Shown here piece after piece: positions 1 through 64,000 of a stretch of 64,000 bases of DNA; within the stretch, counting starts at the first letter, position 1; each line of letters opens with the position of its first letter. The stretch is taken from assembly GCA_037201605.1 (NCBI GenBank), contig JBBCGM010000001.1, positions 147,585 through 211,584 of the forward strand. The letters run 5' to 3'. Below the pieces are notes generated by a model, which saw only the letters and a list, made by a program, of their open reading frames with translations, did not search any database and was not told where the DNA came from. This DNA is from Candidatus Moraniibacteriota bacterium. Its GTDB lineage: Bacteria; Patescibacteriota; Minisyncoccia; Moranbacterales; UBA1568. The position numbers and the translations under genes were made by a program.

Positions 1-1686
1 GGGCTCGACGGCCGCCTCTTGCCGGTCGCCGGTCAATTCGCAGGACAGACTATAGAAGAAGCGCGTGAGAAGATCGTAGCCAAACTGGAAGAGAAAGGAC
101 TCCTGGTGAAGCGCGAGGAAAATTACGTTCATCAGCTGGCCACAGCGAGCGCACCGGCGGCATCATCGAGCCCCAGATTCTCAAACAGTGGTTCGTCGCC
201 GTCAATCAGGAATTCGAATCAGGTGGCCGGAAAACAACGCTCAAAGCACTCATGCATCAGGCCGTGCGCGAGAAGAAAATTACCATCCTGCCCGAACGCT
301 TCGAGAAAAACTATTTCCATTGGATCGACCATCTGCGTGACTGGTGCATCTCACGCCAGATCTGGTTCGGGCACCGCATTCCGGTTTGGTAATCGAGGCG
401 AAGAAGTGTTCGTGGGCTTAGAAGCGCCAGAAGATACTGGCTGGGAACAGGATCCCGATACCCTCGATACTTGGTTCTCTTCGGGCTTGTGGACCTTCTC
501 TACGCTTGGCTGGCCCGAAAAAACGGCTGACCTCGAAACCTACCATCCGACTACCCTCCTCGAAACCGGCTACGACATTCTCTTCTTCTGGGTGGCGCGC
601 ATGATTCTCTTCTCAGAATGTCTGTTAGGAGAAGTGCCTTTCAAGACCGTCTACCTGCACGGCTTGGTACGCGACGACCAGGGCCGCAAACTCTCCAAGA
701 GTCTGGGCAACGCCGTTGATCCGCTCGAGGTTATCGAAGTTTATGGGACGGATGCTTTACGGCTGGCCCTCACTTCGGGTACGACTCCGGGAAACGACGT
801 CCGCCTTTCCGACCAAAAGATTGAAGCCAATCGTAACTTTGCCAACAAGCTGTGGAACATCGCCCGCTACGCAGCAAGCGCCAAAGCGGAAACGCCGGAG
901 GCTAAGAGTCTCGCCGATCGCTTCATTCTCGAGGCCCTCGACGAAACGATTCTCACGGTAACGCAAGCCCTCGAAAATTATCAGCTCTCAATCGCCATCG
1001 AAACGCTGCGCGCCTTTACTTGGGACGACTTCGCCGACTGGTATATAGAGATCCACAAGCTGGAAAAAAATGATGGCGTGCTGCGCCACGTGCTCGATAC
1101 GCTTCTCCGCCTCTGGCATCCGTTCATGCCGTTCGTGACCGAAGCGCTCTTCCAACAAAGCAATGACGAAGACGGCGCCCTCCTCATGGGCAGCCGCTGG
1201 CCGCAAGCGCAAAAAACCGCGCCGGATTCCGCGCGCGCCGATTTCGAAGTGCTCCGCCACCTCGTCACCGAAATCCGCAACCTGCGCGCTACTTATCACC
1301 TCAACCCGAAGACTACTCTCTCCTATACGCTCACGGGCGATGCGGCTCCGCTCCTTACGGAACAAGCGGCTCTCATCGAAAAACTTGTTTCTGCCGAATT
1401 GGTCCAGTCCGCATCCGACGCACCGGCCATCAAACTCGTTCACGGCCGCTTCGAGGCAGCCGTGTTTTTGCCCAGCGACTTTGACCGGAGCGCGGAACGG
1501 GCGCGCCTGGAAAAAGAGCAAGCGAACCTCACGCGTTTCCATCAGAGTCTCGCGGCTCGGCTCGAAAATAGCGACTTTACCAAGCAAGCCCCGGAAGCAG
1601 TCGTTGCAGCTCAGCGTAACAGCCTAGCCGAAACCGAAGAGAAATTAGAAAAGCTCTCGCGTTCGATTCACGATCTCTCTGCCTAA
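1..1686 (+). CDS. valS: valyl-tRNA synthetase, C-terminal ~560 codons (5' end outside window); contains two compensating frameshifts
   Basis: The frame-1 ORF runs from the window edge to 1686. Class-I ValRS signatures are present: DTWFSSGLW, KLSKSLGN (KMSKS), an anticodon-binding region and a coiled-coil tail. Between ~145 and ~391 the conserved residues (RTGGIIEPQILKQWFV...ERFEKNYFHWIDHLRDWCISRQIWFGHRIPVW) are encoded in frame 3, not frame 1. Confidence 0.9.
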   Translation, partial: GLDGRLLPVAGQFAGQTIEEAREKIVAKLEEKGLLVKREENYVHQLATASAPAASSSPRFSNSGSSPSIRNSNQVAGKQRSKHSCIRPCARRKLPSCPNASRKTISIGSTICVTGASHARSGSGTAFRFGNRGEEVFVGLEAPEDTGWEQDPDTLDTWFSSGLWTFSTLGWPEKTADLETYHPTTLLETGYDILFFWVARMILFSECLLGEVPFKTVYLHGLVRDDQGRKLSKSLGNAVDPLEVIEVYGTDALRLALTSGTTPGNDVRLSDQKIEANRNFANKLWNIARYAASAKAETPEAKSLADRFILEALDETILTVTQALENYQLSIAIETLRAFTWDDFADWYIEIHKLEKNDGVLRHVLDTLLRLWHPFMPFVTEALFQQSNDEDGALLMGSRWPQAQKTAPDSARADFEVLRHLVTEIRNLRATYHLNPKTTLSYTLTGDAAPLLTEQAALIEKLVSAELVQSASDAPAIKLVHGRFEAAVFLPSDFDRSAERARLEKEQANLTRFHQSLAARLENSDFTKQAPEAVVAAQRNSLAETEEKLEKLSRSIHDLSA

Positions 1687-1690
1687 ATCT

Positions 1691-2134
1691 ATGCCGGTCT
1701 TTTTTCTCATCCTTGGAGGATTGGCGAGCGCCTTTGCGCTCATTCTGGAAATTCTCCTCATTCCCGGCGCGGGCTACGGCAGCACCGGCCTCTCCCACTT
1801 GGTCTTGGCGGCCCTGATCGAGGAAAGTGCCGCGCTTCTTTTTCTGTGGCGCGGTTTCCGCACCTTTCCCGAGACCCTTCTCCGCACACGCTTGGCGAAC
1901 GGAGCCTTATTCGCTATCGGCTTCTCCATCCCGGAAACCTGGCTCGCCATACAAGGCTCAGCTCCTCTCTTCACCCCCCTTGCCGTCTTCGGCCTCCACC
2001 TGGGAAGCGCCCTCATTCTTGCCTCGAGCCTGGCGCCTGGCGCACAGAGAAGCAAGCGGGTGGGTTTCGCATTCGCGCTCGCTATAGCGCTCCACCTGCT
2101 CTACAACGGGCTCGTTTTTCTTTTCTCAAGCTAG
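1691..2134 (+). CDS. small polytopic membrane protein (PrsW/CPBP-like EE...HxxxN motifs, tentative)
   Basis: 147-aa ORF starting 5 nt after the valS stop. It has 4-5 hydrophobic segments, plus the motifs ALIEES and HLLYN. Confidence 0.45.
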   Translation: MPVFFLILGGLASAFALILEILLIPGAGYGSTGLSHLVLAALIEESAALLFLWRGFRTFPETLLRTRLANGALFAIGFSIPETWLAIQGSAPLFTPLAVFGLHLGSALILASSLAPGAQRSKRVGFAFALAIALHLLYNGLVFLFSS

Positions 2135-63131: not shown

Positions 63132-63146
63132 TACACGAACAAATCT

Positions 63147-64000
63147 ATGGACGTTCTGCGCAAACATGCAAATCTGATCGTAGCCCTCATCTTGGTCGCC
63201 TTCTTTGCCGTCAACATGCTGGTATCCAGCCAAGAATCTACCATCACAGACGAAAAGGCGCATATCCCGGCTGGCTACAGCTATGTGCGCTATGGAGACA
63301 TGCGCCTCAATCCGGAGCATCCGCCCATTTTGAAAGACCTCTCCGGCCTGGCACTTTTGCCGCTTCAGCCGGAGTTCCCGCTTGATTCCTGGGAATGGCA
63401 AGAGGGTATCAACGAGCAATGGACGCTCGGCGACAAATTCATCAACTGCACCGCCCCCGAGCAAGCCTGTAATGATGCGGACCTCATCACCTTTGTTAGC
63501 CGTATCCCCATTATCCTCGTTGCCGTCATTCTAGGCGCTTTTCTCTACTTCTGGACGCGTGAATTGGCAGGAACCTTGGCGGGCTTGCTCGCTCTGACGC
63601 TCTACGCTTTTGATCCCAATATTATCGCTCACAGCCACTATGTGACGACCGACATCGGCATAGCGGCGTTCATGTTCTTTGCGTTCTACTTTTTCGTCCG
63701 ATTCCTGAAAGATCCGAGTCCGAAAAACATATTCTGGTCCGGTATCTTCTTCGGCCTGGCGCAACTGACAAAGTTCTCCGCCGTACTCCTCTTGCCTATT
63801 TTCGGGCTCTTCGTTATCCTCTACGCCCTGGCGACACCGAAACCCGTCGGCTCATCTCTTAGCACGTGGCTCTTCAAGCTGCGCGAGATCTTCTTCTTAG
63901 GCCTCAAGTTCCTTCTGAGCCTCGTCATCGCTTTCGTACTCATTTATATTGTCTACTATCCTCATACCATCAACATGCCGGGTGAGAAATTGTCCGAGGT
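63147..64000 (+). CDS. second GT-C fold glycosyltransferase (ArnT/PMT-like), 3' end outside window
   Basis: Hand translation from ATG 63147: MDVLRKHANLIVALILVAFFAVNML...DEKAHIPAGYSYVRYGDMRLNPEHPPILKDLSGLALLPL... It stays open to the window end. Confidence 0.65.
   Translation, partial: MDVLRKHANLIVALILVAFFAVNMLVSSQESTITDEKAHIPAGYSYVRYGDMRLNPEHPPILKDLSGLALLPLQPEFPLDSWEWQEGINEQWTLGDKFINCTAPEQACNDADLITFVSRIPIILVAVILGAFLYFWTRELAGTLAGLLALTLYAFDPNIIAHSHYVTTDIGIAAFMFFAFYFFVRFLKDPSPKNIFWSGIFFGLAQLTKFSAVLLLPIFGLFVILYALATPKPVGSSLSTWLFKLREIFFLGLKFLLSLVIAFVLIYIVYYPHTINMPGEKLSE

Follow-up and report, generated by a model that had tools for sequence, protein, structure and literature searches.

Analysis of the window, meaning the whole stretch of 64,000 nucleotides, revealed that its block-wise frameshifts are present in the deposited record but are no real biological feature. 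In the deposited sequence, single-base insertions and deletions crowd positions 1-30,086 and approximately 43,090-49,950; frameshift-aware alignment and a gene finder detected no genuine indels at 30,087-43,090 and approximately 49,950-64,000. Very probably, these genes are not decaying but are broken by single-base PacBio read errors that went uncorrected where an unpolished metagenome assembly was thinly covered. The organism itself most likely carries intact valS, tsf, prfA, lexA, 16S rRNA, and other affected genes.

Indels were located using a purpose-written frameshift-aware protein-to-DNA aligner, for which homologues from the syntenic relatives L084, L087, L002, L003, L060, and L165 served as queries. 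The alignment verified 44 indels, all of which were single-base, and direct DNA comparison with the Logan contig L171 added eight more. A homology-free, frameshift-allowing gene finder placed 49 events, all within the two error regions except for three, of which two mark natural overlaps of genes and one is an edge effect, and it yielded at least 24 further candidate indels; at least three indels also lie within the 16S rRNA gene. With the same aligner, no genuine event was found in 9.1 kb of clean aligned genes at 34.7-39.9 and 49.95-55.0 kb, for which the pooled rate predicts ~15 events (P ~3e-7, by our own calculation). The only shifts reported in the clean regions coincided with the rpoA (35650) and rmuC (52422) start codons, which we read as artefacts because the queries were stop-to-stop open reading frames (ORFs) that included upstream non-coding translation. 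Pfam searches of the raw frame translations gave a low yield, namely LexA, YGGT, DsbB, ThsB_TIR, and the GH81 N-terminal domain. After frame correction, the LexA, YggT, Nudix, and GNAT domains were continuous across the predicted shift sites. A simple codon-usage frame plot was too weak for calling frames. These results confirmed that frameshifts are confined to blocks, as the earlier note had claimed from the same DNA. Its blocks are real, but the clean regions are sharper and wider than it had drawn them (30,087 to ~43,090 and ~49,950 to 64,000). Furthermore, its count of at least 29 disrupted genes was not reached; approximately 24 were verified, with dsbB, the amidase gene, and the GIY-YIG gene outside that count.

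Event density along the window was ~5, 0.2, 5 or more, 0, 1, and 0 per kb in successive stretches, whose lengths were ~14.4 kb or more, 4.9, 10.8, 13.0, 6.9, and 14 kb or more. The first dense stretch (1-14400) extends beyond the upstream edge of the window, and 31 single-base indels were counted in 6.1 kb of its aligned genes (~5 per kb). In valS, two of them form a compensating pair, one nucleotide being lost near 145 and one gained near 390. The valS ORF stays open despite this pair, with 82 conserved residues scrambled between the two sites, and another shift in this gene lies upstream of the window, near -477. The remaining events fall in hsp20 (4 in 548 nt), vanW (8 in 1,355 nt), the SIMPL gene (3), M23 peptidase a (10 in 537 nt), and the HlyD-like gene (4); the LexA, YggT, and Nudix genes of this stretch were likewise frame-corrected. 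The earlier note had treated 0-30 kb as one block. Errors do occur there, but not uniformly: a near-clean stretch (14401-19334; GT2, a 671-aa membrane gene, and the GH81 C-terminal domain) showed one event in 4.5 kb aligned with L165 proteins (14.64-19.33 kb), compared with ~5 per kb on both sides. This event, the gain of one nucleotide at the A8 run 17554-17561, splits the 671-aa membrane gene into 254 and 415 aa. The second dense stretch (19335-30086) includes the N-terminal part of GH81, M23 peptidase b, GNAT, two ThsB-TIR genes, 16S rRNA, and a 129-aa gene. In GH81, all five events were losses, and M23 peptidase b had one gain, at 22632; both ThsB-TIR genes were split over frames according to Pfam. 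The 129-aa gene (29590-29979, forward strand) carries 1-nt gains at 29665, 29891, and 29958; its corrected product matched the L171 protein at 127 of 129 residues, and all three insertions are absent from that independent assembly. A low-GC island was also observed at 13-26 kb, and the error boundaries do not track it.

The first clean block (30087-43090) extends from rpsI/rplM to rpoA, rpsD, rpsK, rpsM, and infA, followed by uppS, a polyprenyl synthase gene, a PRTase gene, five tRNAs, and a small ORF at 41879-42037. Alignment of its genes with L002 homologues showed no genuine frameshifts, and its tRNA set is identical in L002. A missing tRNA had been suspected in the Thr-Tyr-Thr-Trp-Glu cluster, and this was rejected, as L002 has the same five tRNAs. 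Separately, tRNA-Lys may carry an extra C in its T arm. The sparse error stretch (43091-49950) has ~1 indel per kb, with six events in 5.75 kb aligned: one each in the TPR gene, tsf, prfA, and the gene at 48.7-49.4 kb (C4 to C5), and two in the DUF192-like gene. In this stretch, rpsB, rpmE, and prmC are intact, and corrected EF-Ts has its full length by comparison with 120 homologues, almost all of them 191-194 aa long. The last clean block (49951-64000) comprises an mraY-like gene, rmuC, and a VirD4/TraD-like cluster in which ORFs run to 745, 830, and 903 codons; here too, no genuine frameshifts were found in the genes aligned with L002 homologues. The alignments to homologues thus bore out that the essential single-copy genes valS, tsf, and prfA carry indels, and that the genes of relatives lie in one frame where those of the window are shifted. 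All individual sites named before, in hsp20, tsf, prfA, yggT, the A8 run, and the C4-to-C5 tract, were present.

The 16S rRNA gene (26119-27683, reverse strand; Rfam SSU match, 1321 bits) has indels at universally length-conserved sites. At the site corresponding to Escherichia coli 785-806, the window reads GGATTAGATACCCAGTAGTCCCACGCC, with one loss and one gain, and at the 946-955 site it reads GCATGTGTTTAATTCGA, where a single G stands in place of GG. In the CPR relative L096, both sites are free of indels.

Next, we analyzed the signature of the errors. Among the 44 homologue-verified events, 25 gains and 19 losses were counted, and the direct comparison with L171 gave six gains and two losses, so that the earlier description of the lesions as mostly single-base losses did not hold. 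Since losses leave short runs, the homopolymer test was applied to gains alone: 20 of the 25 insertions have a run of at least three no more than 3 nt away, compared with a 43% background (p = 2e-4). Residual HiFi errors are mostly homopolymer errors (PMC11392814; PMC13087279). The local error rate reached 1.8% (10 per 537-569 nt). The nominal quality floor of HiFi reads is Q20. The observed local rate is worse than this floor, and the path reads would therefore have to be unusually poor locally.

An exact protein match located the window within GCA_037975565.1, contig JBBCBH010010996.1, of ~235 kb, from a rare Candidatus Moraniibacteriota-like (CPR) organism, where it occupies 141,812-205,811 of the record in reverse orientation. 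JBBCBH is a hifiasm-meta r058 co-assembly made with default settings from HiFi reads only; its input was four PacBio HiFi deadwood metagenomes of ~4 Gb each, with a mean read of 18,340 bp, and the depositing authors discarded the hybrid assembly (PMC11613949). Polishing is mentioned nowhere in that paper, a silence that is not proof of none (PMC11613949). An independent assembly is provided by Logan contigs, which keep only 31-mers seen at least twice per accession (PMC12424806). L171, a Logan contig of HiFi run SRR28211700 from the same study, is identical to the window throughout 30,087-36,982 (6,896 positions). Immediately upstream, at 29,518-30,086, it differs at 10 sites, namely eight single-base indels and two substitutions, all ten of which are absent from L171, where the 129-aa ORF is restored; this direct comparison of error sequence covers 569 bp. 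The switch at 30,086/30,087 is thus sharp to the base, and there is no biological landmark there. Similarly, across 51,433-64,000 the Logan contig L167 and the window share 12,566 of 12,568 positions, and at the two differences the window version retains the long ORFs. For the homopolymer differences A3/A4 at 56725 and G3/G4 at 53689, at least two reads of one run oppose the contig.

Of the proteins looked up, two of three from the clean blocks gave Logan HiFi contigs, compared with none of six from the near-clean sub-block or the error stretches. Exact look-ups of the L31, rpsB, PRTase, GT2, DsbB-like, 140-aa, and 147-aa proteins returned the source contig alone. The PRTase gene lies in a clean block and yet has no Logan contig, indicating that coverage of clean sequence in that run can fall below 2x. 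An intact EF-Ts or Hsp20 of identical sequence was also sought elsewhere; the best match was 74% identical, and hence there is no independent copy of the organism at tsf. In a metagenome scan with ValS, the relatives were at most 52% identical, and L084 alone was syntenic, for 0-10 kb.

The assembler offers a mechanism. hifiasm corrects each read from overlapping reads, and its contig is copied from successive tiling-path reads without a closing consensus stage. A poor path read that few or no other reads overlapped would pass on to the contig its residual CCS errors, which are mostly gains or losses of one base within short homopolymers, and a good or well-supported path read would give clean contig. 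As the quality and support of the path read would set the local error level, each stretch of distinct density would correspond to the contribution of one read; every such stretch is shorter than the mean read length of 18.3 kb. The 30,086/30,087 switch would then be a read junction.

A minority of the indels might nevertheless be real, which we consider unlikely. The A8 tract of the 671-aa gene and the tracts at 56725 and 53689 could represent phase variation, or the loss at CCG[G]AAG could reflect a modified motif that perturbs the polymerase. The earlier note had suggested testing for methylation-linked basecalling errors at CCGGAAG and had named, as one example, a long-read assembly polished only where short reads mapped, which would point to noisy reads of the nanopore type. 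Three of ~27 losses are plausibly at CCG[G]AAG, of which those at 2497 and 43873 are inferred and that at 30024 was seen directly, and one difference between Logan and the window lies at CCGGG[G]AAG. However, when sequence contexts were checked, eight copies of CCGGAAG were intact inside the error regions, including one at a distance of 12 nt from the lesion in prfA, and most events are homopolymer gains elsewhere. Moreover, the record is described as a HiFi-only hifiasm-meta co-assembly, with no polishing mentioned (PMC11613949). The mosaic consensus of the earlier note thus survives as an artefactual mosaic of good and bad sequence, whereas partial polishing as its cause is very improbable and the motif fails as a determinant.

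Even less can be said for real pseudogenisation, in which a decaying CPR lineage or relic DNA had some blocks kept or restored by selection or recombination. The indels are truly in the deposited record, CPR genomes are reduced, and most error stretches are without a second assembly. However, valS, tsf, prfA, and 16S rRNA are affected, and one gene of 537 nt has 10 shifts. Across ~5,900 aligned codons of the error stretches, no convincing nonsense codon was found; the aligner reported in-frame stops only at 3315 (vanW), 43118 (TPR, with the L002 query only), 50125, and 52428, which we read as alignment artefacts; they are adjacent to shifts or fall where the sequence is upstream, of low complexity, or badly aligned. 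No larger deletions were seen in the broken genes aligned. Disrupted proteins were as similar to relatives as intact ones (hsp20 78%, prfA 76%, and tsf 65% identical, compared with 67% for intact rpsB). In addition, all indels are gone where the assembly backed by two or more reads overlaps an error stretch, and the boundary there is base-sharp and without a biological landmark. Decay is accordingly highly unlikely, in agreement with the earlier judgement that it was the less likely reading.

An equally implausible alternative is a chimera of two strains or species, with the error-like blocks derived from a divergent strain. Four samples were co-assembled, and GC varies, with the low-GC island at 13-26 kb. 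Nevertheless, strain differences are expected to be mostly substitutions, and the independent assembly showed eight indels to two substitutions, which also speaks against the merged strains suggested before. L002 synteny is unbroken across the 43.1 and 49.95 kb boundaries, and the error boundaries are independent of the GC island. Programmed frameshifting or slippage-tolerant expression was rejected, as the relatives L002, L084, and L165 are single-frame and genes of the window show as many as 10 shifts each, whose contexts vary; an alternative code with recoded UGA, as in some CPR, was likewise rejected, as the disruptions are frame changes, no stop stands at a conserved position, and the 745-903-codon ORFs are open under table 11.

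Uncorrected read error, as the preferred reading, matters only as quality control. The public GenBank record, together with a derived MAG or protein catalogue, holds read-sized stretches with 0.5-2% indel error. By our own tally, called genes at 1.7-14 kb average ~115 aa and fill ~59% of the sequence, compared with 214 aa and ~93% in the clean block. Such stretches produce gene-caller fragments, inflate the counts of short hypothetical proteins and pseudogenes, lower completeness estimates of CPR genomes, and can introduce errors at the primer sites of 16S sequences. Before proteins encoded at 1-30,086 and 43,090-49,950 are used, their frames need to be corrected.

Compared with known systems, programmed frameshifting and transcriptional slippage, as in prfB, dnaX, and IS elements, similarly show an apparent frame change within one gene. 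In contrast, a single gene of the window can carry as many as 10 shifts, which go in both directions, lack a common slippery motif, are not conserved in relatives, and also occur in 16S rRNA. Genome decay, as in Mycobacterium leprae, Sodalis, and recent endosymbionts, likewise leaves many frameshift-interrupted genes; here, however, essential translation genes and rRNA are hit with no convincing nonsense mutations or deletions, protein similarity is kept, and the lesions do not recur where the same reads were assembled independently (569 bp compared). HiFi (CCS) homopolymer errors in unpolished low-coverage assemblies also consist of single-base lesions with gains enriched at homopolymers, affect RNA genes as well as coding genes, are missing from a consensus of at least two reads, and concern a rare member of a community sequenced as a shallow HiFi metagenome. 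The window differs from such assemblies in its density of up to ~1.8%, which exceeds that usually quoted for HiFi, and in errors that lie in read-sized blocks and are not even, probably because hifiasm copies from one read at ~1x coverage.

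We analyzed the reading frames with a protein-to-DNA aligner permitting 1-nt gains and losses, which was written for this analysis because ORF lists alone under-report damage. The homologues used as queries came from syntenic relatives (0-10 kb: L084 and L087; 13.8-20.2 kb: L165; 35-55 kb: L002 and L003; additionally L060), and 44 single-base events were found. In valS, a loss at 145 and a gain at 390 form a compensating pair, leaving the ORF open with 82 conserved residues scrambled. Ten events fell within 537 nt of one M23 peptidase gene, eight in vanW, five in GH81, four each in hsp20 and the HlyD-like gene, three in SIMPL and two in the DUF192-like gene. 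Single events were observed in the other M23 peptidase gene, the TPR gene, tsf, prfA, the 671-aa membrane gene (A8 run, 17554-17561) and the gene at 48.7-49.4 kb (C4 to C5). All lay in two error regions. Across 34.7-39.9 and 49.95-55.0 kb, 9.1 kb of genes were aligned in the same way and none held a genuine event, whereas ~15 would be expected at the pooled rate (P about 3e-7), confirming that frameshifts are confined to blocks as the earlier note had claimed. The aligner did place one shift at the start codon of rpoA and one at that of rmuC, both artefacts produced by using stop-to-stop ORFs as queries.

The intact genes were used to train a Viterbi gene finder that has frameshift states and needs no homology. 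It placed 49 shifts, although it under-calls where events are dense. Only three lay outside the two error regions, namely two natural gene overlaps (37442 and 38623) and an edge effect. Pfam matches of the corrected LexA (both domains), YGGT, M23, GNAT and NUDIX products span the predicted shift sites, and both ThsB-TIR genes are divided between frames.

The two error and two clean blocks proposed earlier were recovered, but with shifted limits: clean sequence extends from 30,087 to ~43,090 and again from ~49,950 to 64,000. Moreover, the first error region (1-30,086) is non-uniform, with ~5 events per kb up to 14.4 kb, a single event at 14.64-19.33 kb (4.5 kb aligned), and again ~5 per kb or more from 19.33 kb to 30,086. 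The second (43.09-49.95 kb) contains ~1 per kb. At 49,700-49,960, a mraY-like ORF overruns the end of its L002 homologue by ~72 codons, in frame into the DUF192-like start, and a different frame encodes KTATAK and then a stop, resembling the C-terminus of that homologue; judging from the sequence, the mraY-like stop codon was probably lost to an additional indel near 49,945.

Every lesion was a single base. Gains (25) outnumbered losses (19), contrary to the view that losses predominate. The gains nearly always copied the adjoining base; 20/25 lay within 3 nt of a run of 3 or more (background 43%, p = 2e-4) and 11/25 adjoined a run of 4 or more (background 15%, p = 5e-4), while the losses shortened short runs. 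No convincing in-frame stop codon was found in ~5,900 aligned codons; the few reported by the aligner lay beside a shift or within poorly aligned sequence and were discounted. Broken and intact proteins were equally similar to relatives. As for the suspected CCGGAAG motif, eight copies are intact within the error stretches, yet G was lost from CCG[G]AAG at 30024 (seen directly) and at 2497 and 43873 (both inferred). These three losses exceed our chance expectation, and a context effect could be involved.

The 16S rRNA gene (26119-27683, minus strand) carries indels at conserved sites: one loss and one gain at the universal 785-806 site, and GG cut to G at 946-955, whereas the 16S of a CPR relative has the canonical length at both. 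The rRNA itself is damaged, and therefore any rescue at the level of translation is ruled out. This 16S gene also contains large insertions of 49 and 39 nt and reads CAGCAGTAGCGG in place of CAGCAGCCGCGG at the 515F site; it is solitary, with no 23S or 5S match anywhere in the 64-kb window. The nine tRNAs are the same set as in relatives. The tRNA-Lys (5,074-5,150) has one apparent extra C in the T arm compared with L084 (GAGCCCCTAC versus GAATCCTGC) and still scores 66 bits; by this comparison, the C is possibly a further homopolymer gain.

Independent sequence was then compared. Look-ups of the 903-aa protein and RpoA returned the source contig and two Logan contigs, L171 and L167, both from SRR28211700, one of four HiFi runs of the study that produced JBBCBH. 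Logan keeps only 31-mers seen at least twice (PMC12424806), and therefore these contigs show only sequence with at least twofold support. L171, spanning window positions 36,982 to 29,518, matched the window at every one of 6,896 positions as far as 30,087; beyond that, starting at 30,086, 10 differences occurred in 569 bp (eight single-base indels and two substitutions). A 129-aa ORF whole in L171 is cut in the window by inserted bases at 29665, 29891 and 29958, the first of which the gene finder had predicted blind; the two proteins share 127/129 residues. L167 spans 51,433-64,000, extending to ~81 kb, and its 12,568-bp overlap with the window shows two differences only, both in homopolymers: 53689 (G4 run, context CCGGG[G]AAG) and 56725 (A4 run), at L167 17765 and 14730. 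L167 is one base shorter at each, splitting the 745-aa and 830-aa ORFs that are whole in the window; either two or more reads share the same under-called homopolymer, or the run length genuinely varies. Of the clean-block proteins tried, 2/3 had a Logan HiFi contig, against 0/6 of those tried that are encoded in the error stretches or in the near-clean sub-block.

The frameshift pattern is thus real in the deposited record but an artefact without biological novelty, as documented by the record's provenance, the error signature, the absence of lesions from the twice-supported reconstruction and a base-sharp boundary at 30,086/30,087. An exact-protein look-up identified the window as GCA_037975565.1 contig JBBCBH010010996.1 (235,604 bp), record 141,812-205,811, reversed. 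RpsB and synteny place the organism beside Candidatus Moraniibacteriota MAGs (CPR/Patescibacteria); the best relative, L002, has a 66% identical RpsB and is colinear from 35 to 55 kb. To write a contig, hifiasm copies error-corrected reads in tiling-path order and computes no consensus at the end; correcting a read in turn requires that enough other reads overlap it. Each stretch with its own error density would then be the share contributed by a single read, and poor reads at ~1x support would remain uncorrected. None of the stretches (~14.4 kb or more, 4.9, 10.8, 13.0, 6.9, and 14 kb or more) is as long as the mean read of 18.3 kb; however, errors locally reach 1.8%, exceeding what the nominal Q20 floor allows, and this counts against the mechanism.

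The only paper found citing JBBCBH describes a co-assembly of four deadwood PacBio HiFi metagenomes (per sample ~216,000 reads, mean length 18,340 bp, ~4 Gb) with hifiasm-meta r058 at default settings (PMC11613949). Homopolymer errors are the chief residual HiFi errors (PMC11392814; PMC13087279). Neither partial polishing with short reads nor methylation errors of nanopore sequencing agree with this pipeline, in which the Illumina-inclusive hybrid assembly was dropped and polishing is nowhere described (PMC11613949); the mosaic-consensus reading of the earlier note accordingly stands as to artefact, not as to polishing. Merged strains would yield substitutions instead of the indels seen. Real gene decay, already judged less likely in the earlier note, is contradicted by the genes and RNA affected, the lesion spectrum and the direct Logan comparison. 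The result serves as a warning on the JBBCBH accession and on low-coverage hifiasm-meta contigs generally.

Several other features were observed. A low-GC island (13,800-25,400; 36-47% versus ~55%) holds a GH81, 671-aa membrane protein, GT2 and HlyD-like cluster colinear with L165, a Logan contig of the unrelated run SRR23702483 (GH81 65% identical). Beside this cluster are two ThsB-type TIR genes and a GNAT gene, and the region may have been acquired as an island of cell-envelope and defence functions. In L165, a short-read contig, GH81 is likewise called as two ORFs (7,143-9,228; 307 and 400 aa, 41-nt overlap), a split that may be natural or an error in L165 itself. In clean sequence at 34,034-34,459, the NCBI contig call is an opposite-strand 140-aa ORF displacing rplM, and L13 is called in the identical Logan sequence. 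Also in clean sequence, the 473-aa call for the polyprenyl synthase is over-long and overlaps a conserved plus-strand 176-aa ORF (39,785-40,315; 39% identity with an L084 protein). The 134-aa protein at 50,947-51,351 has an identical copy on a 1,379-bp contig of GCA_015689235.1, and therefore the same organism turns up in another data set, with very low coverage. From 50,947 to 64,000 and beyond in L167 lies a gene cluster that encodes a VirD4/TraD-like ATPase (830 aa, DUF8128 and DUF87) and includes ORFs of 903 and 745 aa that gave no family matches. Its gene order is common to the Moraniibacteriota MAG L002, and the cluster looks like a CPR type-IV-like secretion/uptake system rather than a recent mobile element.
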